A stretch of DNA of 64,000 bases from Pecten maximus (Eukaryota). Positions 15,233 to 51,250 of this stretch are shown here, one piece after another; position 1 is the stretch's first letter, and each line of letters opens with the position of its first letter. The position numbers were made by a program, and so were the translations under genes. Below the pieces are notes generated by a model that was given only the letters and a program-made list of their open reading frames with translations, was not told the DNA's origin and did not search any database. The stretch spans positions 14,012,001 through 14,076,000 of the forward strand of contig NC_047020.1 of assembly GCF_902652985.1 (NCBI RefSeq), read 5' to 3'.

Positions 15233-15838
15233 CTATTAGATAAAAAAAATGAAGTAAAAACATGAATCAATTAATAAATAAAACACCCTTATTCACAACA
15301 TTTTGCGGAAGGAGAATTGATTTTTCCAAAACAAACGTTTGGCTTTTTCAATTGGGCGTACAGTAATTCTGATGATTGACTTTTATCTGCCATTATTAAT
15401 TAAACCATTCAAACTTGAATCTGTTATCATCCCATGTTCCTTTTATTTCGTTTTTATCATAAAATAGCGGTTTAAAAGAAACCCTTAAGCATCCAAATAA
15501 TAAGTCACTTGAAGTATTTCCAAAACTCCTTCAAATGGTTCGAATGCCAAAATTATCACCAAAATTATTTGATTCCGAGAACAAAATATAAAAACAGGTC
15601 TTGATATTTTCCAATTTTGCACTGTGCTGTACTTTATGTGTCGCAGTGATAATAACTATGAAAAAAAGTTTTACGACTTTGCTATGAAATGTTTAAATAC
15701 ATAGCAATGATTATTTGGTTAAATTTTGAAAGTTAAAATTTAAAAGAAATTGAAAGTTAATTTTAAAATAAACACGTGCAAATCGGAATAATTGTAGAAA
15801 GTCCTTTCAGAAATGTTAATTGATATTCACGAACTAAC

Positions 15839-16417
15839 CTGGTCTCTTAACAATCCTCTTTGACCTCCGATTGTTTTCCGCTTTTTGAGAAAACTTCTGA
15901 CGTAATATGGACTTGTTCCATAAATCAGCGGTACACCTTTTTTGCCATGTAGATCTACAACGGTCCCTGGTTTCATTTTGTTTCTGATCCTGTGAATGTT
16001 TTCTTGCCTGATTGGTTTCATTGAGACGATACGATCAATGTGATATGTGAGGAATGCATCTTGTTGTTCGGAATCCATTTGGACAGCATTTGAACCTGGA
16101 CCGTGGGAGTGTGCTTCCTCGGGAATAGCCAAAGCGGCGTCGCCGGATAAACTTGGTACAGGATCGGAAGAGTTTGCAGCTACAAGAACATCACAAGGAC
16201 GACCGGCTACAAAATCAAGGGGAGGTGCAGCTTTTTCAGGAACAGCTACAACACAATCACCCGGAAGACTGGCTTCGGAGCCAGGAGGGTGTACAGCTAC
16301 TGTAAGAACAGCTAAGTCGACATTACCAGGAGGACCGGCTACAGAATCGGGATAGCTTGCACGCACTATTGGGACAAGTACCTCTTCATCCTCTCTGACT
16401 GACGTTGTTGGGGACAG
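15839..16417 (-). CDS. Pseudokinase gene, pre-kinase segment (Pro/Ala/Val-rich, ends GGQRGLLRDQ)
   Basis: Open frame (ORF 15827-16366 extends upstream) with donor CAG|gttagt at 15839. The 5' boundary is uncertain (frameshift or 50-nt intron). Confidence 0.65.
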
Positions 16418-16467
16418 CTGGTTTTCATTTGTCAGAAGGGCATCAGCCGCCCGTCCAGAGTACTTAC

Positions 16468-18030
16468 CATGTATGTGTTCAAAGTGGGTGTGATTGGACG
16501 AATTCCAGCATCATAATATGATATCGCTACCTCCTTCAGACTGTTTGAAATTTTGCTCTTTTCGGTAGACACAGAATGTCTACGTAAGTTTGTTTGCTTT
16601 GAAAAGGGTAACAAAGCATTCCATAACATTCCACTCATAATTCTTTGTAGTTCAAACACAATACAAACGATCACACATGTCATTTGTAAGCTGAGTCCCG
16701 ATTCGATGGATGATGTGATCTGGTCTATCACAGTGCTATTTTTCAGGTTTTTGTGACTTTGCTCATAATCTTCGGTGGTGTTTTGTATGATTCCTGCTAT
16801 AGATATCATCTTATCGGTCTGTTGTGATCGCATCACTGCCAGCCATCGAAAACATTCATCTCGAAATCTCAAAATATTTTCCATTTCGCCATGTTGAAAT
16901 TTCGCCGAGGCGTAATTTCCGCTAAATGCTTTTGGTGACATGCTTTTCGTACTGGTTATAGTTGTTTCCAACCTGTCTCCAAGTAAAAAATTCCTTTTTG
17001 CATCAGTCTGAGGAAAATTTTTGAGACGTTCCACCGGATCCACGAGAACAGTTTCATCCATGGAAATACCTGGTGATTGTCCGTCAGTGCGTGCACACAT
17101 AGAGTCAGCATCAAAGTCTCTACCAAGGACGTCAGCATCATCTTCCAAACGATCTTCAGGTATATCGGTTTTGATAAATGGATTTTTGATTGGAATGATG
17201 TCATTCCTGCTGATTGGTAACAAATCAGCAGCTTCTTCCGAAGTAACTTTCCCCTTTCCAACAATTGCTCTCGGGTCGACAGTATGTGACATCTCCTTCT
17301 CTTCAGGCGAGCGCAATGTTCCAGCTGCTCTCTCGAGAGACATGCTCCTCTTACTGCTAGCATTTGTTTTCAACCTGCCGTCCAGTAATATATTTCTTTC
17401 CTTGTCTGTCTGAGGAACATTTTTGAGACGTTCTAATGGGTCCATGAGAATAGTTTCATCCATAGAAATACCTGATGATGGCCCGTCAGTTTGTGAATCC
17501 CACATGCATTCAGCCTCGGCAATATCAAAGTCTCTATCATTTTCTTTATCCAGGAAGTAAGCGCCATCTTCCGAACCGTCTTCAGATACATCAGTTTTGG
17601 TAAATGGATGTTTAACTGGAGTGATCTCATTCGTCTTCATTGACAAGACAGCATCATCTTCCGATGTAACTTTCCCTGTCCCAACATCTGTCCCCAAACC
17701 CTCGGTATGGGATATATCCTCATCTCCAGGCCAGTGATTGCTTTTAACAGATTCATCTTGGTTATCTCCAAGGTATTTTGAGTTTTTTGTAGCCTCTGTT
17801 TTCCCAATGATGTAGCATCCGTCGTAAATATCATTTTCCGGTGATATGAAGTTCAACGAACCATTGAAGTCAGATCCATTTTCAGGTGGTTCCCAGATGT
17901 CCGTTCGATAACGTACTAGTCCTTCATACACGTCTTGCTCACTGTATTTGACACTGTTGGTAAATTCCCACTTATCACCCCCGCTGCCTTTCTTTTGCGT
18001 CACCTCTTTTCTAGCCGGTTCACTCATCAT
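16468..18030 (-). CDS. Pseudokinase gene, large N-terminal exon (acidic low-complexity, internal duplication, hydrophobic segment)
   Basis: 532-aa ORF; acceptor ttacag| at 18070, in frame with ATG 18030; perfect donor ATG|gtaagt at 16468. Confidence 0.75.
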
Positions 18031-19174
18031 CGCTAACTTGATATACCCATCTTTTGGTTCACTATATCCCTGTAATACAATACCAACAGTACATTATTTT
18101 ATCTATTGTCCCTTATAAATAGTAAAACTCCTCATGTTTATATATATCTATCTAATTTATTTCATTTCTGTTTGCTAGTATGCTCATCATTTACTCAGAT
18201 TCAAATGAATTCGACTTTGATACCCGTATCTATGCTTGTTGATTGAAATTATATAACATGATTGTCCCAAACGTACAAAACAATTATCCTTCTTTAACAC
18301 ATCTAATTCAATGTAGATTTCCAATGCATGAGTAATACAATTATTTTATTAGCTATGATTCGATTGACCGTTTCTTAGTCAAGCGTACCTCTGGAAGAAA
18401 AGGGGGGAAAGTTGAGAGAAAGCAAAGCAGAATTTGACAAAAATAATTGTCACACTACTTCAGCTACATTAGATGCAGACAAGGAATGTCAAAAACCTCT
18501 GAAGAAAACGTGATGCTTAGGTGTATATTGACAAGGCGTCCATGGGCCACCGTCATTGTAATGGTGTAGACAAACTATTTTGTGGTACTATATATAATTT
18601 CACATAATATATTTAGATTATTTGAGATATATATATTATATATATACATGTATATATATATTAAGCATAATACATGTAATATGTAAATGTCTCTAAATGA
18701 ATATTGATGTTTTCTATTTTGTCAAGCAGTACTTCGCATCATAATCAACAAATGGAATGACCCCGATATTTGAACCCGGAAGTTATTCTACAGCGTACTT
18801 CGGTTGTTTATTTCCGCTATAAAGGGAAGTTTTTACGTAATAAAGGGGAAGTTTTACACATCTTTCCCCGTTCCTTCAAGTAGGCATCGTGATGTTTCAT
18901 GAAACATTTTCTTTAGATTGGTAAGTACATATTGTTTTAATGTTTTTGTACAATTGTACAACTATTCTGGAATTTTAACCATGGCGTTTCGGCAACTTCA
19001 GCTAGTCACTATCTTCTAGTGACCAGTGCACCGTATGTACATAGACTATCAGCAGTTTTTATCAAGTATTAACAATTTAAAAAATTACAATACTATATCA
19101 AATTTTTACGTATTATTTTATTTGTAATTTTATAGTCAGGGGCCAGTCTAGGTACATGTACAGGGCGCGACGAA

Positions 19175-24770: not shown

Positions 24771-25614
24771 ATAATTTTCAGTCAAACAGTTTTACAGATA
24801 TCCATTTCCCCCCATTATGTATATATTTAATTCAACACATTATGACATACGCCATTACATGTATGTTTACAACTAATGACCATTATACCATATTCTAGTT
24901 TCTTATAGAATGATAACAGTAGAGGTGATTTCAGAGAAGCATGAAGCTTTTTAACAATTGTGGAAATAGCACCAACAGAGCCTAGGTGTTCATAGCATTG
25001 ACAATATTCATTTGATCAGAAACCTCATGTTTAGTGATATTAATGTTGATTAGTGAATGCGAGTTTGGTAGTGAATGGGGGAGTGGGGCATTGGGTTGTG
25101 CTGTCTAGGGTAATTCGAGGTCAGGTGTTAATGTAGAAATGTGATAGTGAAGTGGTTGTTAGGAAGGTCTTCTTTGTCAGCTGGATAATGGTTTATTTAG
25201 CCGTTAGATTCAAGTGGTGGTATAGGAGATGTTGTATTAAAAAAAAATTATATCATTTAGTGATTTTTTAAGATTTGTTTTATATATATAGTTTGCTTTG
25301 CTTTTATCTCACGGATAAGTCTTTTGGAGGATTGCTACCTTGCCGTGGCCCGAAGGCTTGGAGCTTTCCTGGCAGGAAATGTATGAGCTCCTGTTATCTG
25401 TTGGTCAAACAATGTCATTTAGGTTCACGTTGATGAACCAGACCAAAATTAATACAATCCAGAAGCTCAATCTCGAAGCCGTTATTTGCGTCCCCTAAAT
25501 CTGAGTTCTCTTCTAAACTATCCAATAGGATAAAGAACACAAACACAAAAGTTGTATTTCCCAGCGACATAGGCACTGATCTGATGAAATCAATCACATC
25601 TAAAACAAATTCTG

Positions 25615-25919
25615 CCATCATCCAAATACATCAAAATCTGTAAACCCTCACCTCTCCATATTTTAATGAGCGCTCTAGTTACTTTGGTAAAAATATATGG
25701 AGCGGTAGATAGACCAAATGGTAACACTAAAAATTTGAAATATACCTTCTTAGAACCAAATGTCCAAGAAAAACCAAGAAATTTGGTATGAGGTGGAAAT
25801 ATATATATGTGATGATACGCCGAATGTATGTCAAATTTAATTAACCAACCCTGTTTTTCTATATACACCAAAGCCGTGCGTAAATCGTCATATTTTACAG
25901 ATTGTTTCCATAAATGTTT
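25615..25919 (-). repeat. Internal duplicate of RT segment 28533-28840
   Basis: Near-identical sequence, differing by 7-nt, 3-nt and 1-nt indels and a few substitutions. Confidence 0.95.
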
Positions 25920-26305
25920 TTCCTTTTTCCTAACAGGTTTCGACAATAATCGCTTAGCTCCCTCAAAAACATTTTTTACAAGTAAAGAATCAGTGGGAGA
26001 TGTTTTATCCACGATATTGTGTGCCCATCTAATGCCGTATAAAGCGTCAGTTAAACTTCCAACACTACCGTTCTTTTTAACCAAATATGATAAATATATA
26101 CACAAGATGAAAGTTTTAGTCGGAAAAATATCCTCTTCCTCAAAACTATTTTGACACGCCCACTTTTTCCATCGTAAAAAACCATGGCAGTATTTCCTAA
26201 CTGTACTGTCTGCTTTACACCCCTGTAGTAATTGTGGAACCGCCAACGCAAAGTCCTTTAGATGATCCGGAACCATATCGTATTCATCTTTCAAAGCATG
26301 TGCCA
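25920..26305 (-). pseudogene. Tyrosine recombinase N-terminal (core-binding) part; catalytic half deleted
   Basis: KADSTVRKY..GF.RWKKW...SPTDSLLVKNVFEGAKRLLSKP aligns with the copy 2 YR, then jumps into RT sequence. Confidence 0.85.
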
Positions 26306-26559
26306 CTAAACGTAAAAAATAAAAAACAAAAATATTCCAAAATAAGTATTCAACATGAAAATATATTATATTGTACACTTGTACACAAATAGCGAAACTT
26401 AAATTGTATTGTGATAGGAATAATATCCAATAATAAAGAAAAAACGTGTTAACAATACCTTCAAAATTTATATACATGTAAATACCGTAAGATCAGTTAA
26501 AATGAATGAACTTATCACCGAAAAAACGGTACAGAATCGATCAAACCAATCATGCGAAA

Positions 26560-27087
26560 AACTAAAAACCGAAAGTCGGTATATATACAGTACATGTATG
26601 TCTGTCAAAACACCGAAAACCAGTATAAGGATATACAATTACCATAACTCTCTGTCACGACACCGAAAAACGGTATAATAACACCGAAAACCGGTAACAC
26701 CGCAAAACGGTATGTATAATACAGTTATCATAACTGTCTGTCATAACACCGAAAACCGGTATATATACAGTTATCATAACTGTCTGCCATAACACCGAAA
26801 ACCGGTATATATACAGTTATCATAACTGTCTGCCATAACACCGAAAACCGGTAGATATACAGTTATCATAACTGTCTGTCATAACACCGAAAACCGGTAT
26901 ATATACAGTTATCATAACTGTCTGTCATAACACCGAAAACCGGTATATATACAGTTATCATAACTGTCTGTCATAACACCGAAAACCGGTATATATATAC
27001 AGTTATCATAACTGTCTGCCATAACACCGAAAAACCGGTATATATACAGTTATCATAACTGTCTATCATAACACCGAACACCGGTAC
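26560..27087. repeat. 46-bp tandem repeat inside PAT copy 1, between pol and YR (ATAACACCGAAAACCGGTATATATACAGTTATCATAACTGTCTGYC)
   Basis: ~8 near-identical units at 26714-27085 plus degenerate units to the left. Confidence 0.95.
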
Positions 27088-27239
27088 TGCGACAATATAA
27101 ACTGCTAATCAAATAAATCTTATAATACGATTCTCACCAAAAATGGTATCATGTCAAAGAAAATACTATGAATCAAAACAAAAAAGCTGTACACAAAATG
27201 TCCATATAAACCTATTTACATATGTGTACGTGCCTGATT

Positions 27240-29518
27240 ATCGAAAATCAACACGTAATGCAAGCATAGGAAATGCCAAATCTACATGTCCGAATATACC
27301 CTTTCCTGATCGGGAAGGGGTATAAAAATATTTCTGTCTGTAAGAATCTGTATTCCCTAATCCCCACTATAAAGCTCCGTCCGTCCGGATACACACAGGG
27401 CCAAAACCTACAAGACTTCCAAAAAGGAATGACAAGCGTGCCATATGCTTTACACATTTGCATATACCGGATAACTCTCGAAATGAGATACACTGGAGGA
27501 ACAAACTATCCATTAAAACCGGACCAACTAGCAGAAAAGGCGTCAATACCAGTGGACCCTGGATTCCAATACCTAGAATAAAATGTAGACACCTTACTGT
27601 TGTACCAGGAGGCAAACCAGTCCACCTCAAATGTACCCCAAAGGTCATCCAAAAACTGGAAAATACTTTTACTCACACCCCAATCGTCAACATCAACAAT
27701 TTTACTGATAAAATCAGCACACACATTTTCCTCTCTGGGGATCCATTCCATTTCCAATGAAATATGATTTTCTAGCATGAGCTTAAAAATATCAAGTGCT
27801 TCATTTTGCAGAGATGATTTCATGCTCCCCTTCTGAACAATTGAAACCACGCCCTGGTTATCTGAAAACCATTTAACCCGAGTTCCTCTCAATTCATTAA
27901 CAAGAGAACATAACACTCGATATACAGCTGTCAATTCCCTAAACGTCGAACTCTGACCTGCCTTGTTCTCAGTCCAAACTCCGTGTGCCACGCCCACTGG
28001 AGACTCCACACAATATCCACCGTACCCTATGCCACTAGCATCCGAATAAACTATTCTATTGCACTGTGGAGAATACTGAATGTCTCTAGAGTTGATACAA
28101 TTGATATGATTAACCCAGAATTACATCTGAGCTACAGCATTTTCATCCACAAAAATTCTGTCATTCCACGACTGGGCTTGTAAGATACACATACTGATAC
28201 ATTTTGTCATCAGCTGAGTAATATTACCCAGTACTATACTCATGGACATAATTTGACCAACAAAACTAGCTAAAGTTTTAACATGGACTGACCTGCCACT
28301 CTGAATAACATTCAACATATCAAAAACGCACACACGTGCTTTCTCTACTCGTCTCTGCGGTATAGATAAAATTCCCACTAAAGTATCGATATCTACACCG
28401 AGAAAAGTCATACACTGGACAGGATCCCACATGGACTTGTCTGCTTTGGGCACAAAACCCGACTCAATAATATCACTTTTCACTTTAGAACTCTGTTCTA
28501 ATAGCTTCAACTTGACAGTATTATGACACAATCCATCATCCAAATACATCAAAATCTGTAAACCCTCACCTCTCCATTTTTAATGAGCGCTCTGGTTACT
28601 TTAGTAAAAATATATGGAGCGGTAGATAGACCAAATGGTAACACTAAAAATTTGAAATATACCTTCTTAGAACCAAATGTCCAAGAAAAACCAAGAAATT
28701 TGGTATGAGGTGGAAATATATCTATGTGATGATACGCCGAATGTATGTCTTTAATTAACCAACCCTGTTTTTCTACAATGTATATACACCAAAGCCGTGC
28801 GTAAATCGTCATATTTTACAGATTGTTTCCATAAATGTTTGTTGACTTCTCTCAAATCTAAAATTAAAATTAAACGCTTTTTACCGCTGCTCTGAACCGA
28901 TACAGTCAATGGATTTGTGATATATGGCAATTCCTCACATCTCCCTATCAATTTACGTTTTTCTAAATCAAAAATAGCCTTCTCCACAAACCCTGCATGT
29001 TTCAACGCCGAAACGTTATTTTTAAATTCTCCCTTGTTTGGTTCCGAATAAAAAGGAATTTTATACCCAGTATCAATCACATCTAAAACAAATTCTGAAC
29101 AACCAATGTTCTTCCAGTATTCAATGTTATTTTTTAATCTACTTTTAACTAAAATGTCAGCCTGTCCTTGCTCATATTCAAAAAAGTCATTCGTTAGATC
29201 TCCTGAATCACGGACTCCTGTACAATCACTACTTGACAAATTATTTGTATACTTATCTTTAATGACTTGACCCTCTGTGGTCTCTATGTCCCTATGTCCC
29301 AGTCCTGGACTGTCCGGCCGACTTGTTGATGATTGGACAGTCTTTCCGAAAGTGTCGGAAGTCCCCACAGGCGTAACATGCTCCCTGATTTCCTCGTTGG
29401 CCACGAAAAAGATTACTCCCGTCAGAATGACGCACAGTAGAAATCTGACTTGAAGACCCCGCCGCAAAACTGGGACCTTGAGGCCCATACCTGGACCTCT
29501 GCCTGTTGAGAAAAACAT
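27240..29518 (-). pseudogene. pol: pol (RT, RNase H, MT-like) of copy 1, with frameshifts and stops
   Basis: ORF pieces 28751-29518, 28549-28812, 28121-28552, 27506-28009, 27248-27493; motifs KRLILDL, LPFGLS, YLDDG, SSTFREL, DWFAS. Confidence 0.9.
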
Positions 29519-30005
29519 CCTTCTTCTTTTTCTGTTTGTCTTTCAACCTTTTCACTGCTTTGTTCTCAGCACGAGAAATTTTCGTGTCGTCATCTGAATC
29601 ACTAGCAAGAGGGTTAGCTATATATTCATTGACTGTCCCCCAACCTGCCTCAGAACTTTCTGCTATTCTGATAAGTTTGTTCCTTTTATTAATCTTTTCC
29701 GACACTCGCCTCAGAATTTCAGAACAATATTCAAACTTGCTATTGTCAACATCCCATAACGCTTGTGTAACTTCCTCCAGAAGGTCCGAATTAAAGGAAT
29801 ACTGTTGCTTATTCCCATCACTTTTCCACGTGATACTTATGTCCTCCTTCAATTTTTTAATGTCTTTAGAAACGTCTCTCCCGTTCTGAATTTCAGCCAA
29901 CCTATTGTCCAAGTATTCCTTAATTTCACCTTTCTGGCTTTGTAGTTGTTGAAATATATCATTTAAGGTAACGCTACTGGCAGAATTCGAACTGCTGCCC
30001 TCCAT
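29292..30005 (-). CDS. gag: gag of copy 1 (CCHC knuckle CYACGDFRHFRKDC)
   Basis: ATG of MEGSS at 30005; homologous to the copy 2 gag (RNK.I.IA.SS..GW.TV..Y..NP.ASDSDD). Confidence 0.85.
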   Translation of the reverse strand: MEGSSSNSASSVTLNDIFQQLQSQKGEIKEYLDNRLAEIQNGRDVSKDIKKLKEDISITWKSDGNKQQYSFNSDLLEEVTQALWDVDNSKFEYCSEILRRVSEKINKRNKLIRIAESSEAGWGTVNEYIANPLASDSDDDTKISRAENKAVKRLKDKQKKKKDVFLNRQRSRYGPQGPSFAAGSSSQISTVRHSDGSNLFRGQRGNQGACYACGDFRHFRKDCPIINKSAGQSRTGT

Positions 30006-30058
30006 TAGTGAACATGTAAAATCGTCTATAAAATTTACGTGTGATCTGGTATACCTGT

Positions 30059-30135
30059 GTCGCCTGAATGACACGTATAGGCTATACCCTACCCAATTTG
30101 CACGTGCAAATACCAGTAACGCCACCTATTGGCAT
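30059..30135 (-). promoter_or_regulatory. Putative promoter in the A repeat of copy 1: CTCF-like motif (30117-30135), E-box GCACGTGC (30100-30107), Inr-like TCATTC block (30059-30074)
   Basis: These blocks are conserved with copy 2 while the flanking bases diverge. Confidence 0.55.
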
Positions 30136-31500
30136 ACCTCATACCGAAGAGAAAATAATTACATCCTAATTCCTACCGTCAACCGGTTGAAATTATATGA
30201 ATAATGTCCTGGTAGTTGAACAGTTGGCTTCAGACTCTGACTACATTGGTGGTGATATGGTCTCTATATTATCAATCGGGTTGTATCGTCTCTAGAAAAA
30301 CATTGGCTTCGGGGCAATCACGGGAGAACCAAAATATAGTTTTCTGTTTAGACTATACTATTTTAGTAACCCTGAAACACTGGAAATCCGTTCCGACGGG
30401 AAGGTCCTCTGGTTGGGCTTCGTGGTGGCTTGGAACAACAATAGTGAATAACACATATGGGTTTAAATAAAAACAATGACGCGGATCATCATGATGAGTC
30501 AAACAAAAAGAAACATACCACAAACTACAAAGACACACACACCGAACATTACACCAAACACAAAACCTACACAACCTGGAAGGTGGCCTTCCCCGATGCT
30601 CCCGAGATGGCAAACTAACCCAGGCAAAAACAACTCATTTGAAGAGCCTCCTGCTGGATTACTACACCCAAACATTCAAAACAAAGCATAACTTCCTCGT
30701 CCAAATAACCTACCAATCAGCCAGCGGCACCATAGAAATCAGCAAATATGACAAACCATTGAAATTCCATGGCAGGTGCCGACCATCACAAACAGACTCG
30801 CCGGTCGACACTTACCGGATTGGTGAGTCTAGCGACCTACAACCGCATCACCTCGGGACCAAAGAATACCAAAATCTAGGTTTCGGATCAATAGGCATTC
30901 CGCCCTAAACAACAAACAAGCAAAGGGTTTGGATGACTCTATCCAGGGTTACAACTGATATGGTATCCTTATGGACATATTAGCACAATGTTGCTGGTAC
31001 CAAACAGTTAACACCATGAACATTCATCGCGAATCAGGATAATAGTCAACAAATTTAAACAAATGAACATAACCGGTATGGTTTCATATCAAACGTTGAT
31101 CAATAACAACTCTCCCCTACGATCTTTTTCTTGAAGAGATTGAGGAAAAACTAGAGGAACATGCACATTAGTATACCACCTATACCATGTGCCAGTATAC
31201 AATGACCGTACAACAGGTCATTCTGCAATGATCGTCATCATGGACATTCTGCATTCACAGATTAAGCTTAATTCGCCCCCGTAAACTGCAGCTGTCTCTG
31301 TTACTCTTCACAGACAGGTAACTAATGCTCTGATTCAATGGCCATAATACTATGTACCTAGGGACCACCTAACACTGATAATAGGGATAGACACATTGAG
31401 GAAGTCACCAACAAACAAAACTTACATCCCTCTACAATCTCTTATCCATATTGCTATACCATCAATCCGTCTACCTTGACAATAGTCGGTGGTGAACATT

Positions 31501-38208: not shown

Positions 38209-38755
38209 CCATTTATTCATATATTTCTTATCTTTAATCAACTTTGATGTAGAATTTCGTCTTGGTTTTTCATTGGTAAAAATATTATATGACTAAATTC
38301 TAATCAACTGGTATTACTACATTGTAAACAATACATCCTGTATTGTTTTAGGAATGGGAGAATGAAGCATAGTACATGGTTTACAGCATTATAAATACAT
38401 ATGGGTGTTCACTGAACAGCATTTAAATGGCGGCTTTTGAAAACGATTCTTAGTTCATTTCTCTCCGTTTTTGACACAGGGGTAACCCCGAGTCATAGGG
38501 ATTGATATGAAAACCGGAAATGGCAGCGGTAAAAAGACAGGTACTGCCCTCTACCGGGCTCTCTGAACAATATTATAGTACACACTAATTTTGCATCTGC
38601 TGAACGGAAGATGTGAAAGCATTACTTTAGTTAATGCGGTTCCTATAAATTAGTCATAATCATATCAGTATTACATCATTTCCTTCTTATAGTATATTTT
38701 TGTGTGTTTACATGTTTATTTCGAAGCTAAAAGCTAACCTGCTGTAGCCATACTG

Positions 38756-38842
38756 TTCTCCTACAATCTCTGTTCGTGCCTAATGCCAGAAAACACACAA
38801 ACACTTGAATAAATTGCAAACGGGGCGACCGACCCGCGTACT
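38756..38842 (-). repeat. Split direct repeat B2
   Basis: Copy of 39326-39412. Confidence 0.95.
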
Positions 38843-39152
38843 AGTTTATTAATTGCCATGAAATACATACATTTCACAATGCAAACTTTTACACTAACGA
38901 TGTACACAGCCAAAACAAGTTATATTATTTCCATCAAAATACCCCTACAAAAAATACGATGACCATGAAAGCACTCAACATCGCACAGACTGTCGGTAGG
39001 CAATGTATGTACACTACCTACATTGTGTATATACACAAAAATGTATTTCTGAAGACAGTCACGAACTGTCACGCCCGCGACGTTGTGTGCTAATCCAATA
39101 AACCTTTCTGCAATAAAAGCAGATTTAACAACAAAACAAAATTTGTATCGAA

Positions 39153-39326
39153 AATTTTAACGAAAGCTGACCGTGTATACGCCTAAAAGGTCGTCGCCTG
39201 AATGACACAACCACGAACACGCACGTGCTTCGCAGGTAGCATATAGCGCCACCTAGCGGTCCGCTCTACTATAGGAGAAATTAATTTCGTTCTTATTCCG
39301 CCTAGTCAAACGAAAGAAATTACATT
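39153..39326 (-). repeat. Split direct repeat A2
   Basis: Copy of 43355-43528. Confidence 0.95.
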
Positions 39327-40409
39327 TCTCCTACAATCTCTGTTCGTGCCTAATGCCAGAAAACACACAAACACTTGAATAAATTGCAAACGGGGCGACC
39401 AACCCGCGTACTGTCGTATACCTAAATTCCTGGAAACTAACAATCTCTCCTCAAGGGAATCCTTTACATAACAGTCTTTCGCATTCTCCGATTTCCATCT
39501 GCCGTGCCTCTTAAATATTCTGTCTGCCACTGTTAAATTAGCCGCGCTTGTTGCTCCGCCGGACCGTAAACTGTGTAAACCATATTTACTGATATCAGAT
39601 ACGAAAGGAGAGAACACTTGAATAAATAACTCGCGCATCCGCGTATATGACAGAGGTTTGTTCTCATCGCGCAAAATGAAACCATTGCTGGTCTTAGTAA
39701 TAGATCGAAAAACATAGCGATCTGAACCAAGTATTAACTCCGCGATATCAATATACCTCTCCAGATTGGATACCGGACATAACTTAGTATACGTCCTAGC
39801 TTTTACAACATGGTCACCGTCCCTATAAATATCAGTCTTGCTCTGACGAATTGAAATAGTCATATGACTTTCAGAAAATTCAATGTCGCACATACGTATG
39901 CTAAGTAATTCTGATACGCGTAAAAAACCTGCATAGGCTATCAAGCAACCACAAATTGTACGCTGCGAAAATAAATCTTTGTCACTGTAATTCGCAGAAT
40001 ACATAGATTCTAACAGTTCTGGAGTAATAGGGTCCTTCCTATTCCTCGGTGTAGACAAACGCCTCTTTGCTCCCTCGAGAATGTTCCTCACTAATAATGA
40101 ATCAGTGGGAGAATCCCTCCCAATGATAGAATGCGCCCATTTTAAACTATAATAGGCTTGTATAACCGGGCTTGACGTCGCATTATGCTGGACTAAACAC
40201 GCGAGATAGAGAGCAACATGGATGGCCCTAGCCGGAAAACACTCCACCTCAGATAACCCTTTTTTCAAGGCCCAGTCCTTCCAACGTACGAATCCCTGGT
40301 AATACCCTTTCGTTGTGCTACTGGCTTTACTTTCGGCCAAAAGTTGAGGGAGGAGACTGACGTATCCGACTAAGGCCCCAGGCAGCTCTGCTATTTCCCG
40401 CTTGAAAGC
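39306..40409 (-). CDS. Tyrosine recombinase (YR) of copy 2
   Basis: Catalytic residues present: GFLRVSEL (R), SKTD (K), HSLRSGGA (HxxR), HGRW, KDCY (Y). No N-terminal ATG; the ORF-track start at 40436 is TTG. Confidence 0.92.
   Translation of the reverse strand, partial: AFKREIAELPGALVGYVSLLPQLLAESKASSTTKGYYQGFVRWKDWALKKGLSEVECFPARAIHVALYLACLVQHNATSSPVIQAYYSLKWAHSIIGRDSPTDSLLVRNILEGAKRRLSTPRNRKDPITPELLESMYSANYSDKDLFSQRTICGCLIAYAGFLRVSELLSIRMCDIEFSESHMTISIRQSKTDIYRDGDHVVKARTYTKLCPVSNLERYIDIAELILGSDRYVFRSITKTSNGFILRDENKPLSYTRMRELFIQVFSPFVSDISKYGLHSLRSGGATSAANLTVADRIFKRHGRWKSENAKDCYVKDSLEERLLVSRNLGIRQYAGWSPRLQFIQVFVCFLALGTNRDCRRNVISFV
39326..39412 (-). repeat. Split direct repeat B1
   Basis: Copy of 38756-38842. 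Confidence 0.95.
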
Positions 40410-40563
40410 CTGCGAAAATATGTTTAAACAAAACAAAAATACTAAATTAAAATGTAAGCAGTAAGTTGCTTATATACATATAGTGTCACATCCAAAACGC
40501 CCCTATCAAAAAACCACCACCAGGATTTCACGTACTAGTATGGAGTACGACCATCGTAAACAG

Positions 40564-42982
40564 TTATAGGTTAATACATTTAGCATTGTTAAAATTTAAC
40601 CTCAGAGCAATCATCTTGAAAGGAAGATCAATCCTTCCGAACAGACTTATTCCCTTAGGATCCTTTGTTAGTGGGTAAGTATATAAATTCCACCACCTCT
40701 GGTATAAAGCCACCACCACTTGGACATAAAAATGGCCAAAAACTGGCTGACCTCCAAAGAGGTACCACCATGGTCCCATATGCGCCACACTGCTGCATAT
40801 AACTAAGGACACGATGCACTATGCATACTGGTGGAACATACCACCCGTTTACACCTTGCCAATCGGCTGTAAACGCATCCATACCGGATGACCCCACATT
40901 CCAATACCTTGAAAAATACACAGGTAACTTGTTATTGTTATCGCTGGCGAACCAGTCTATCTCGTGGGGTCCCCAAAGGGAATCAAAAAACTGAAAAATA
41001 TCACTGGAAACACCCCAATCATCACAATCGACAATACGACTTATGAAATCTGCCTTTTCATTCTCGTTTCTCGGAACCCACTCGATATCAATTGATATAC
41101 AATTTCTTAAACAGGTGTAAAATATAGATAATGCAACCTTCTGCAAGTCGGCCCTCATGCTGCCCTTGTTTACAATAGATACAACATTCTTATTGTCCGT
41201 GTACCATCTGACCCGTCTACCCTGAAAGACGTACACAAATGACGTCATGACCCTGTCCACAGTGGACAGTTCTCGCCAAGTAGAACTCCTACCGGCTTCA
41301 ACCTCGGACTACATACCGTGTGAAGTACCCATAGGGGTATTCATGACGTACCCGCCGTATCCTGTATGACCCGCGTCGCTAAAAACAATAGATTGACAGG
41401 AATTATCATTAATGAACTTTTTCCCATTAATTTCGCTAACAGATTTGTCCCAAAACTTGAGTTGTTCAACGCTTTGACCCGACAACACTATGTCGGCGTT
41501 CCACGAAGGGGACAAAGCCACGTCTATACTCAACCATTTTGTCATTATGTAGACAACGTTACCCAAGATATATGACATAGAAATGATCTGTCCAACAACA
41601 GAAGACACCTTTTTAACCCTCACAACTCCTCTCTCCTCTATATCTGTTATTACCCCTGAAATACTTGAACGTAACTTTGTCAATCTGACATCGGGAACTT
41701 TTAAAATACCCAAAACAGTGTCAATATAATTCCCGAGGAAAACTAATTGTCTGACAGGCAACCAAGTAGACTTCTCTGGTTTCGGCACAAACCCGCTCAA
41801 AATCAAATCATTCTTGACCTGACTGGATATAGAAGCACACACTTTCTCATCTCTATGAGTACCTAACCCATCATCTAAATACATAAGTATTTCTTTGCCC
41901 TCGGATCTCCACTTCCTAATCAAAGGCCTGGTTAGCTTTGTGAAAATGTAACAAGCCGAGCTAAGACCAAACGGAAGTACTTTGAATTTAAAAAATTGCA
42001 CCCTGCCCCCCAAACGCCAGGAAAACCCTAAACATTTTGTATGGGGCTCAAAAATATCAACATGATGGTATGCGGAATGAATATCAAACTTAAAGCGAAA
42101 ACTATCTTTCTTGATGAATTGCATGGCTACCCTGATATCCTCAAACTTCACACTGGTCTTCCATAAATGATGGTTTACATGCCTTAAATCTAAAATGAGA
42201 CGTTTCTTTCCATTACTCTGAACAGAAACCGTTAAGGGGTTGACAACGTAGGGCATTTCCTTACAAACGACTACAAGGTCCCTAGCTATCAAATCTCCAA
42301 TGGCTTCCTCAACGAAACTCGCATGCTCCATAGCTGACCGATTATTACGTAAGAATACAGAAGTAGGGGTTGAATAAAAAGGTATCTTATACCCGATATT
42401 TATAGTGTCAAGAATAAAATCGCTACAACCAATGCTCTTCCAGAACTCTAAACGATCACACAAACGCCCCTTTACTCTTATATTGACTTGACCCAACTCA
42501 TATTCGTAATAATCGTCAGTAAGGAAAATGTCATTATACTCATCTTTCAACAGTTCATTCTTTCCCGATGGCTGGTACACCTTTTCCTTGATTAGGACAC
42601 TCGTTCCTCCAATGCTGGAAAGATCCACAGCCGTAGCATGCTCCCGATGACCGGCCTCGTCGTTGTCCGTATGCGTGCGCGTGTGTGCCGCCGCCTGTAC
42701 CGCCGAACTGGAACATAGGGACTCCACGTGCACTGAACCAAGGCTCTTGGCCTTGGGGTCCACGAAAGGGCTGCTGGAAATTAGGAAAATTACCACGCAT
42801 GCCCACAGCGCCGCTGGACTTGCCAAAGCCCGTAGACTTCTTTCCTTGTATTTTCCCTTTCTTCTTTTTAATAGCTCGGTTTTCTGCTCTGTTGATTTTT
42901 CCCTCGTCGTCGGAATCACTGGCAATGGGATTGTTTTCATATTGCCTAACTGTTTCCCAACCTCCATCACTAGAGTCAGCAA
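40564..42982 (-). pseudogene. pol: pol of copy 2: RT (YLDD), RNase H and DNA adenine-methyltransferase-like domain; one in-frame TAG (41309-41311) and a frameshift near 40665
   Basis: ORFs 41309-42982 and 40655-41260 are in the same frame; motifs KRLILDL, FDIHSAYHH, LPFGLS, YLDDG, FSDA, SSTWREL, DWFAS, WYVPP. Confidence 0.92.
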
Positions 42983-43349
42983 TTTTGATATGTTTGTTCC
43001 TTTTTGAAATTTTATCTTGCAGACTAGTCAACAACTCGCGTGCGTAGTCTTCTTTGTTGTTGTCAAGCGCCCAACTTAACTGACCAATGTCTTCGGAAAG
43101 TTCCGAATTAAATCCGTGCTGGACCTTGTTACCCTCAAATTTCCACTTGAATGAATTTTCTACCTTTAACTTTTTCACCTGTGTTGCCACGTTTACAGCA
43201 GAACCTTTCACTTCGGCTTTGAGCTCACCTATCTCATGACGCAAACTGTTATTTATAATGTTAATATTGTTCCCTTGCTCTTTTACAGCATTCCAAATAT
43301 CTGAAAGACTAACGTGGTCTTGTCTCTGTAGCTCCTCAGTATCCGCCAT
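42555..43349 (-). CDS. gag: gag of copy 2 (CCHC knuckle CYGCGSFQHWRNEC), overlapping pol
   Basis: Intact 264-aa ATG ORF immediately after A1. Confidence 0.92.
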   Translation of the reverse strand: MADTEELQRQDHVSLSDIWNAVKEQGNNINIINNSLRHEIGELKAEVKGSAVNVATQVKKLKVENSFKWKFEGNKVQHGFNSELSEDIGQLSWALDNNKEDYARELLTSLQDKISKRNKHIKIADSSDGGWETVRQYENNPIASDSDDEGKINRAENRAIKKKKGKIQGKKSTGFGKSSGAVGMRGNFPNFQQPFRGPQGQEPWFSARGVPMFQFGGTGGGTHAHAYGQRRGRSSGACYGCGSFQHWRNECPNQGKGVPAIGKE

Positions 43350-43354
43350 GAATG

Positions 43355-43528
43355 AATTTTAACGAAAGCTGACCGTGTATACGCCTAAAAGGTCGTCGCC
43401 AGAATGACACAACCGCGAACACGCACGTGCTTCGCAGGTAGCATATAGCGCCACCTAGCGGCCCGCTCTACTATAGGAGAAATTAATTTCGTTCTTATTC
43501 CGCCTAGTCAAACGAAAGAAATTACATT
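43355..43528 (-). repeat. Split direct repeat A1 (5' terminus)
   Basis: Copy of 39153-39326. Confidence 0.95.
43395..43464 (-). promoter_or_regulatory. Putative promoter in A1: CTCF-like motif GGGCCGCTAGGTGGCGCTA (43446-43464), E-box (43423-43430), Inr-like TCATTC block (43395-43410)
   Basis: Close match to the canonical CTCF core; conserved in A2 and in copy 1. Confidence 0.6.
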
Positions 43529-44329
43529 ACTGTATGTTATCGTAGGGTTGACCTATATAGTAACTTCACTTCGGTTCCGATTGTGTAATTAATACACAAC
43601 ACTGCAAATTGCCGGTAATACGCCAAGTTACCTTGGATTCAAATATTCGACGTAGAAGGTAGAAGTATTGAAGTGATGGGAAAGATTGACGAGTAAATAT
43701 GGACTTCGAAAGATTACCGATAGTGCCAGTTTGTCCTCGCTATTTTTAGATGGAGTTTTGTTTGTACAACATACTGAATCGCCCCAGATATTAAATCCGG
43801 AAAAATATAAGTGGCCTAATTTATTTACTCATTATTTTATTCAAACGCTAAAAGCGTGTAAATTTACGCCACTTTGTGTGAAGCTTTTATTAGAAATATC
43901 TTTTAATTATTGTGTTTGCTTTATTAAATGGAATACCACAGTTTAAATGTATCGGGACATTTGACCCGGTCGCTGGTTTGTGTGTCAGTTTTGCCTTGTG
44001 ACCCGTATGTTCATCGAGACATTTCACCCATCTTGTTTACCGTCGTAGACTTTCTTTTGGTTTAAACTGTATTTAATTTGGTTATAGCAATGGTACATAC
44101 AAATAATACAAATATAAGGATACAGAAACAAGTACTTGGTACTTATATTAATCCGTCTCCTGATGTAGATATAGACTATGGACTGATATTGACAAAATTA
44201 ATAATACATTTGTCATATATATTTATATATATATAATATGTGCAGGGAAGAGAAAAAGAACGGGTGCAGGGGTCGGGTTGGGGATTACTTGGTGGCATCG
44301 GGGTTGGCATCAAAAATGCAAGAATGGAA

Positions 44330-45990
44330 CAAACACTGGTTATTTATCATCAGAGTTCATAACAGATATGTACTTACACTATATGATATAAGTATTGGGA
44401 CTGTACATGTATTTCTGTAAATATGTACTATTAATATATAGTAAAACAATACAAACACAAAATTTTAACGAAATCTGCGCCATACAAAGTGTATATAAGT
44501 ATCGCGACGATAAATAGGATTTCTAGCATAAAGACAATAGTAATTTCAGAAACGTTTAGATTGAATGATGAAACTTTGAACACAATCAAAAATAACTTCG
44601 TTGAACTGAACAGGGAATTCTGGACTACCATAGAGTAAAAGGTTAACATTATAGTTAGGAGGAAGGCGATTAAAACATTGAAGTCTAAGCTGCCGGTAAT
44701 TGGCACAATGGAGGAGGAAGTGTTCAGTAGTTTCAGTAGACAGATTACACGAACACATAGGGCCATCAACTAAGTTTCGAGCGAACAGATGAGTATTCAA
44801 AGAGCTGCAATTCATTCTTAGACGTGCATGATGAATCTAGCCGTGTCTGCTTCTGCAGTGGTAATAGTGCTGAGGGACAGAGTGAGCAGAAAGAGTTTCG
44901 GAGTTAAGGAATGTTTTTAAGTTAGTTATGGACGGATTGGATTTGATGTTTTCAGGAAGTGTGTTCCATAAATCAACAGAAGAGGATATAAAAGAATCTT
45001 TATAGAGTTTTGTTCGACAGTTTATTTGACAGAAATTATTAGCTCTTCTTGTGTTATGAGTATGAATATCAGATTGACGAGAAGGTAGGAAGTTATTCAG
45101 ATAAGGAGGGCACTGACCATGAACAATCTTGTGGAATTGAATAATTTTATGCTTTCTCCTGCGAGCACTAAGGGGGTCCCAACCGGTTTCTACATAAAGT
45201 CTAGCGTGGCTTGTGAGTTTAGTTGCACCAGTCACGATTCTAACTGCTTCTAGCTGTATATTTTCAAGAATCTGGTTTTGGCCTAGAGTTAGGTTGTCCC
45301 ATACAATATCACCATATTCTAATAGGGGTCTAATGAAAGTATAATACATAGTTTGAAGAGACTTACTGTCAATACTAAATTTGAGGTTTCTAAGTAAACT
45401 AAGTTTTTTAGAGGCTTTACTAGTTATATATTGGATATGGTCAGTCCAACTCCCGTTAGCAGATATTGATACACCGAGGTGTTTATGGCACGTTACTTCA
45501 GTTAGGGAAATGTTATTCATGATCAGGGGTGGATGGATAGGTTTGTCAAGTTTCTTACTTACAGTCATTGTAACAGTTTTGTTAGGATTAAAATTTACGA
45601 GCCATGTTTGAGACCACTCATGAATTTTGGTTAGATCGTTATTTAACTAATTTGTGGCCAGACCCGGTGACTCCACTTCGACATATAGAGACGTATCGTC
45701 AGCAAATAGTTTTATATTACAATGGATGTCATGAACAATATCATTTATGAAAATTAAAAATAGTAATGGTCCTAAAATTGATCCCTGGGGAACTCATGCT
45801 GTGATATATGCTAAATAAGATTGCTTACCATTTATAACAACACGTTGACAACGATTTTTTAAGTAATCCGTGAACCAAGTAAAAAGATTTCCTGTGATAC
45901 CCAACGATCTTATTTTAGAAAGAAGGCCTCGAAGTCAAACCCGGTCAAAGGCCTTGCTTATGTCACAAAATACCATTCTGATTTCTAAAC
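44330..45990 (-). mobile_element. 5'-truncated CR1-clade LINE; RT domain to 3' UTR, with stops
   Basis: VFCDISKAFDRV, VPQGSILGPLLFLIFINDI, LFADDTSL, LEYGDIVWD, QLEAVRIVTG, CSC...ET.EHFLLHC, ...IQSKRF*. Confidence 0.92.
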
Positions 45991-50620: not shown

Positions 50621-51250
50621 TTTTGAATCCATGAAATAGTGCAATTATTTTCATTATCATAGTCACGAAAATAGTATTAGGGTGAAGTAGAGTACTCGAC
50701 TTTTCAAATTACATTACTACATTTTACAACACCCAGAATAAGCTCCGCCTACCTCTCTCATGACTGCAAAAAAAAAATGTGCACCCCTGTGTCTTCAGTA
50801 TTTACAGTACTTTGATTAATGTAAGAAAACAGTAATAATATTATATAGATCCTAGTTAATTAGCGGTACAATTTACCCTATATAATGACGTTGGCAATAT
50901 TGTTAGCGTATGAGGAAACTAGTTAAGGACAGCCTGTTAGTCTCTTACCTAAGACATGGAGAGATAGCATATTTTATATACACAATATGTTACACTGAAA
51001 TAAGGATATGAATTAAAATGAAGAAAAAAAAAACCAAAACAACAACAACATCAGCACGAGTCATCCTTCTTCAAACAGGAGTTGTATGAATTGGAAGACA
51101 TCCTCATTCCCAGTGTCTGGTTCTCTTCGTTGCTTAGGGCTGTAAAAGGCGAAAATAAAGTCATTAGTTTACAATTCACATTTTTATTATTTAAATGAAG
51201 ATTATCCAAAAAGTTTAAGAAAAAGATATATTTTTGTTGAATATACTTAC

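Follow-up and report, generated by a model that had tools for sequence, protein, structure and literature searches.

A CTCF-like site in the predicted promoter of Pat1-like retroelements of Pecten maximus

The terminal A repeat of one clade of tyrosine recombinase (YR) retroelements in Pecten maximus carries a CTCF-type site. On balance, we favour the reading that this site binds the host's CTCF and helps the element's own promoter to stay open at any point of insertion. Selection appears to maintain the site for the benefit of the element and not as an exaptation by the host. The analysis is centred on the window, a stretch of 64,000 nt of the 918-Mb Pecten maximus assembly; genome-wide counts refer to the whole assembly.

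The window contains two related YR retroelements, both on the minus strand, to which the coordinates of all element features below refer. Element 2 has the order A1, gag, RT, RH/MT, YR, B1, A2, U, B2. Its 5' terminal repeat A1 (43355..43527) is 97.7% identical to A2 (39153..39325), and B1 (39326..39412) is 98.9% identical to B2 (38756..38842), the 3' end of the element. The A termini are real, as the flanks of genomic copies diverge precisely at the ends (43527, 39325 and 30198). Between the repeats lie a gag-like ORF with a zinc knuckle (42555..43349), a reverse transcriptase ORF that is terminated by a stop in this copy (41309..43027; PF00078, E 1.7e-12), an RNase H/DNA adenine methyltransferase-like region (40655..41308; PF05869, E 6e-4, and PF13456, E 5e-3, both under the cut-off) and the tyrosine recombinase coding region (39414..40408; PF00589, E 3.8e-6), whose columns R, K, H-x-x-R, H/W and Y are invariant in the family alignment save in single copies. 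A GT..AG intron of 191 nt (40409..40599) is located 5' of the recombinase, and its spliced joint is present in contigs of runs X2, X4 and X5 of one study. Under this donor, the upstream ATG of the window copy is out of frame with YR. The interval between MT and YR also holds tandem repeats in many families (e.g. window 26563-27086). The unique region U (38843..39152) carries AATAAA at 38845-38850, immediately 5' of B2.

Element 1 belongs to a second family and is a rearranged copy (25506..30198) with its own A1 repeat (30029..30198), ending in B2. Compared with its full-length relative L074, it lacks the 3' part of YR, B1, A2 and U, which are replaced by a duplicated RT piece. Long ORFs without Pfam matches are found elsewhere in the window at 15827-18093, 44837-45646 and 51215-53143 (minus strand), the last with internal repeats. 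By structure and domains, element 2 is an echinoderm-form Pat1-like element (PAT group, order DIRS), because the window elements show the defining features given in the available text of PMC4157794. These are split direct repeats A1-ORFs-B1-A2-B2 with internal repeats 3' of YR, RT/RH and tyrosine recombinase on one strand as in PAT-like elements, a knuckle of the form CX2CX4HX4C in the Gag of both elements, and a methyltransferase-like domain that is absent in Ngaro. PF05869 matches this domain in both window elements at E 6e-4 and 7e-3, under the curated cut-off, and the region is kept across families.

Three blocks recur in the A repeats on the minus strand: GTGTCATTCWGGCGAC at 43395-43410, 39193-39208 and 30059-30074, GCACGTGC at 43423, 39221 and 30100, and AGGTGGCG at 43449, 39247 and 30120. 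The CTCF-like site is the 19-mer GGGCCGCTAGGTGGCGCTA in A1 (43446-43464), differs from it by one change in A2 (GGACCGCTAGGTGGCGCTA, 39244-39262), and reads ATGCCAATAGGTGGCGTTA in element 1 (30117-30135), where it overlaps a CCAAT word. A sequence check of A1, A2 and element 1 bore out all motif positions of the first-pass annotation, on the minus strand. The annotation had placed the site 63 bp from the terminus in both families. This spacing is exact in A1, A2 and element 1, where it reflects the shared descent of the two window families; it varies between 57 and 68 nt over 14 families, and a functional constant of 63 bp was therefore rejected. The proposal that each full insertion delivers two sites of the same orientation likewise applies to A1 and A2 of element 2 and not to element 1, which carries one site instead of two because its A2 was lost. 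In both window families the A1 and A2 sites point in the same direction, and no convergent CTCF pair is formed. A third CTCF-like match (38542-38560, minus strand) lies in the host flank, about 200 nt beyond B2.

From 108 YR matches listed in the assembly, 60 were sampled, most of which show split direct repeats; together with the window copy they represent 24 families at 80% YR identity. The CTCF-like site is confined to a single clade of 10 of these 24 families (support 100/99), among which YR identity is 39-74%. Scored with a vertebrate CTCF weight matrix, it reaches 13-25 bits in seven of the ten and is degenerate in L066, L119 and L070. No A-repeat site of 11 bits or more was found in the 13 scorable outgroup families, L087 having been dropped as it shows no detectable repeats. 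A metagenome scan returned 80 loci, 36 of which were placed in the tree. Eleven of these contigs fall in the clade. In six, from four families, the site is present at the corresponding position; the remaining five have no readable A repeat. The clade thus comprises 14 families (10 host and 4 other), which are related and so not independent samples.

CTCF likeness was assessed with the fly core AG[GA][TG]GGCGC, taken from the available text of PMC3483547, plus an upstream CC. At the aligned position, 11 of the 14 clade families match this core within one mismatch, window family 2 exactly, and the other three have two or three mismatches. Of the shuffled A regions, only 3.9% contain a match of this quality at any position, and 2 of 20 outgroup loci have one somewhere in the scanned region, which is about chance level. 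Core identity across the 14 families is 0.82 versus 0.32 and 0.33 in the columns on either side. Upstream of the core, variation falls mostly on letters tolerated by CTCF (R 12/14, M 14/14, Y 12/14), and the foreign family L213 has AGAGGGCG, in which the two degenerate positions of the core are both exchanged. The motif can hence still be described as CTCF-like and common to families, as initially noted. The pattern indicates that the clade has kept the site over a long time, both in this host and in others.

The same motif is enriched in host DNA outside the elements, which strengthens the CTCF-like reading. CCRMYAGRTGGCGC has 394 matches in the assembly against 3 for its reversed control, and CCNNNAGNNGGCGC has 1734 against 457. 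By hand count, R-K occupies the two free core positions in 65 of 96 matches of CCNNNAGNNGGCGC on C1, with 25% expected. On the chromosome-scale C1, 23 of 30 strict matches lie outside these elements and 7 are their A repeats; among further hand-picked matches, 3 of 12 belong to the elements. CpG o/e is 0.94 at 27 distinct non-element sites versus 0.72 in their flanks (p=0.009). From the enrichment and the R-K bias we infer that the host uses a motif with CTCF-type degeneracy and that the elements vary within it. CTCF-type motifs also occur in tandem, as in an 87-bp repeat with a strict motif in each unit (L147-L151, C1:51600779-51601207) and in a similar short array at C2:762368-762537. The CTCF-like site of the elements is probably bound by CTCF. 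No CTCF gene was located in the assembly by a zinc-finger family search, a search for similar host fingers, fetched loci and one degenerate pattern, none of which is sensitive, so that absence is not implied.

We predict that the A repeat holds a TATA-less promoter composed of the CTCF-like site, a CACGTG E-box, a TCAKTY initiator (Inr) and a DPE-like word. In A1, the E-box is the block GCACGTGC at 43423..43430, and the initiator-like TCATTC lies at 43402..43407 with a predicted start site at 43405. The DPE-like word ACACG follows at 43374..43378, corresponding to +28 to +32, the position at which the DPE consensus RGWYV is found. With at most one mismatch to RGWYV, a word at +28 occurs in 16 of 27 families (four exact), and +28 is the best of 22 offsets, the next best reaching 12 families; for this comparison the first Inr was taken per locus, a choice that is probably incorrect for a few outgroups, and 3 of 30 loci gave no Inr call. 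The DPE-like word at exactly +28 lends support to the earlier reading of TCATTC as an initiator, with the start site remaining a prediction. E-box and Inr are common to clade and outgroups: CACG[TA]G is present in 11 of 14 clade families and CACGTG in 14 of 20 outgroup loci. Read by eye, some outgroups show CCAAT, CRE-like TGACGTCA or GC-box words in place of the CTCF-like site, which sits in the upstream-activator slot of the predicted promoter. Its distance to the Inr is 42-85 nt (9 families), compared with the tighter 57-68 nt to the terminus (14 families), a result that speaks against a simple promoter reading. RNA-library contigs span YR, B1, A2 and U, and the intron is spliced on the element sense strand. 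Contigs cover the 5' half of the element sparsely; as assembled sequences they do not resolve where transcription begins, and the sparse cover is given no weight.

A two-stem hairpin whose loop is conserved joins the end of B to the first 54 nt of A. In element 2 it extends over the B1/A2 junction (between 39326 and 39325) at 39272..39333 (z -4.2 / -4.8), and over 14 folds z ranges from -2.6 to -6.1. Covariation lies above all 500 shuffles in the 14 clade families (87.8% paired; two-sided changes in 11 of 21 pairs) and, for the inner stem, in 33 families (92.6% paired, 9/9); relatedness inflates these tests, and slid controls are far lower. Insertion ends map to the bubble that separates the two stems; this point is on the 5' arm in most groups, whereas the L078/L080/L088 group has it on the 3' arm. 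The junction hairpin is for this reason likely the recombinase site, separate from the CTCF-like motif. Left flanks of 34 insertions prefer T-A-A. Integron attC sites are folded single-strand substrates of tyrosine recombinases with two stems and a mismatched bubble. The hairpin shares with them the two stems and the mismatched bubble, a crossover at the bubble edge and a short, relaxed target preference; unlike attC, it is the junction of a eukaryotic retroelement and has a conserved loop sequence. A folded, attC-like single-strand substrate for YR is plausible given that DIRS-1 makes single-stranded cDNA, as stated in the accessible part of PMC7192593, and in double-stranded DNA the hairpin arms could simply be inverted binding sites. 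Element 2 is flanked by identical CAGTA at 38751-38755 and 43528-43532; other sequencing runs lack the insertion, and these empty alleles have CAGTA once. Flanking repeats of 4 bases are seen in L315 and L058 and none in most copies. Target-site duplication as a rule was rejected, as no regular duplication was apparent by eye in other full-length and solo copies.

Transcription would start at the Inr, some 120 nt into A1, and end early in B2. Because of this start, the RNA would lack the 5' half of the hairpin, the CTCF-like site and the E-box, which A2 would restore during reverse transcription. This would explain why every full copy carries two sites of the same direction. Selection would act on the element's own expression or on its protection from flanking chromatin. 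The scattering of sites, chiefly through solo A-U-B remnants, would be a by-product.

The motif could instead be a replication or integration signal at the foot of a longer B-A hairpin, which Gag, RT or YR would recognise in RNA or in single-stranded cDNA; the CTCF likeness would then be coincidental or secondary. Pairing of B with the spacer or motif exceeds that of shuffled B in 10 of 14 families (DNA parameters, p<=0.025), with matched changes in L066, L119 and L069-L071, which counts against the promoter reading, and the A-side site is degenerate where B pairing is strongest (L066, L119, L070). A signal read from a single strand would also agree with the fixed distance between motif and junction, with the A2 motif copy lying within RNA-library contigs, and with the single-stranded cDNA of DIRS-1 (PMC7192593, accessible part). 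However, window family 2, which is among the best motif matches, has no pairing partner in B, and pairing therefore does not explain the site. As L062, L213 and L215 keep the motif sequence unpaired as well, pairing is not the whole constraint, and it may fix the spacing. The core is moreover kept in sequence, whereas positions in the true stems are free to covary; the motif is missing from outgroup families that share the hairpin, and host DNA outside the elements is enriched for it. We regard this alternative as rather unlikely.

The first-pass annotation had suggested a self-insulating retrotransposon that disperses chromatin boundaries. CTCF at A1 and A2, complemented by reverse B sites in some families, would then form barriers or loop anchors, shielding the element, and seed host boundaries. 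The site does hug the element edge (57-68 nt), and L070 has a strong reverse-strand site in both B1 and B2, L067 weak ones, so that a pair facing inward could arise. Only in these two families was a reverse site in B scored, and an inverted AGGTGGC is present inside B in L069-L071. Yet in most families the sites face the same direction, the A-side site of L070 has decayed, and the A2 site, as an obligatory copy of A, follows from the repeat structure. In the available texts, no orientation pattern is described for the CTCF boundaries of echinoderms or flies (PMC13317027), and no orientation-dependent CTCF boundaries are identified in squid (PMC10658182). With a clade-restricted site in the upstream-activator slot and an obligatory A2 copy, self-insulation is unsupported, and we consider it quite doubtful as an explanation.

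Dispersal of sites is seen in the genome-wide counts. At least 193 element-borne sites are present, a lower bound given by exact matches to a hairpin-arm-plus-core pattern (control 0). The 41 copies of family 1 include 19-20 solo A-U-B units, 6 A1, 3-4 A2 and 12 unclassified copies. Solo units (L037-L059, L019-L023) outnumber full-length copies in this family and could originate when A1 recombines with A2 or when YR acts between two junctions in a circular intermediate. Through these copies and solo units the elements scatter CTCF-like sites, as vertebrate TEs do. Against a seeding of boundaries, they supply just 7 of the 30 strict C1 matches. Motif divergence is low in 13 old copies (6/221 versus 126/1838, p=0.013), but that of the hairpin arm and the Inr is equal, and the pattern therefore points to selection on the master lineage. 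In the old copies of the family examined there is no sign of host retention of element-borne sites. An argument for exaptation from motif retention in old copies was rejected because it is confounded by subfamily structure and similarity-based retrieval. As the elements account for the smaller part of host motifs, and their sites show no motif-specific retention in old copies compared with other functional parts of A, the proposed role in dispersing boundaries finds no support.

We give little credence to binding by a host factor other than CTCF whose motif is similar, either another zinc-finger protein or, at the CCAAT of L072 and L074, NF-Y. The unsuccessful, insensitive searches for a CTCF gene would fit such a factor, as would CCAAT, a word that coincides in part with the site in 2 of 14 families and is also present in the outgroups L104 and L116. 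Against it, the degeneracy pattern fits the fly CTCF core as published in the available text of PMC3483547, and molluscan CTCF orthologues are reported in that of PMC10658182. That the CTCF-like motif is the YR binding arm, named in the annotation as a refutation, is disfavoured, as insertion ends map to a separate hairpin, also in families without the motif.

Promoter support by CTCF, the reading we prefer, bears on the role of CTCF outside vertebrates and on the promoters and recombination sites of PAT and Ngaro elements, which are largely undescribed in the literature searched. The polymorphic insertion, with an empty allele at the window copy, allows a direct test of whether one added site changes mollusc chromatin, and dissection of the A repeat yields coordinates at which the start site, poly(A) signal and recombinase site can be tested. 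A further, unlikely possibility is that the clade, in several hosts and over long spans of evolution, has recruited CTCF beside a folded recombination site as an edge barrier that insulates every new insertion, with solo A-U-B units seeding working sites in invertebrate genomes. If true, it would provide a selfish-element reason for CTCF sites and a natural comparison of filled and empty alleles for testing CTCF in spiralians. In agreement with the first-pass annotation, no report of a CTCF site in DIRS-order elements was found in the accessible texts of the literature searched; the same holds for reports on self-insulation and on attC-like hairpins of DIRS elements.

SpPat1 and the PAT elements of Lottia and Nematostella resemble the element described here in their A1..B1-A2-B2 repeats, Gag zinc knuckle, RT/RH, methyltransferase-like domain and same-direction YR (PMC4157794, available text). 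The promoter anatomy, CTCF-like site, junction hairpin and YR intron found here are not described for Pat1-like elements in that text or in the accessible literature searched. In the annelid Dimorphilus, also a spiralian, CTCF motifs mostly occur singly and at promoters, near start sites, and a role in expression has been proposed (available text of PMC7854359), which is similar to the arrangement in the A repeat. The Dimorphilus motifs belong to host genes and have ATAC support, whereas those reported here belong to transposons. CTCF sites borne by vertebrate TEs are described for the mouse B2 SINE, HERV LTRs, MER20, zebrafish SINE3-1a, HATN9_DR and non-autonomous DNA transposons (PMC7786948, PMC9341505 and PMC7182764, in their available portions). 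In these cases as in ours, a mobile element carries and spreads the CTCF motif. The vertebrate cases rest on ChIP or footprint evidence, mostly concern single families and are discussed as host exaptation. In contrast, the site reported here is recognised by its sequence, and it is kept in 14 families, in several hosts and inside the element's own predicted promoter.
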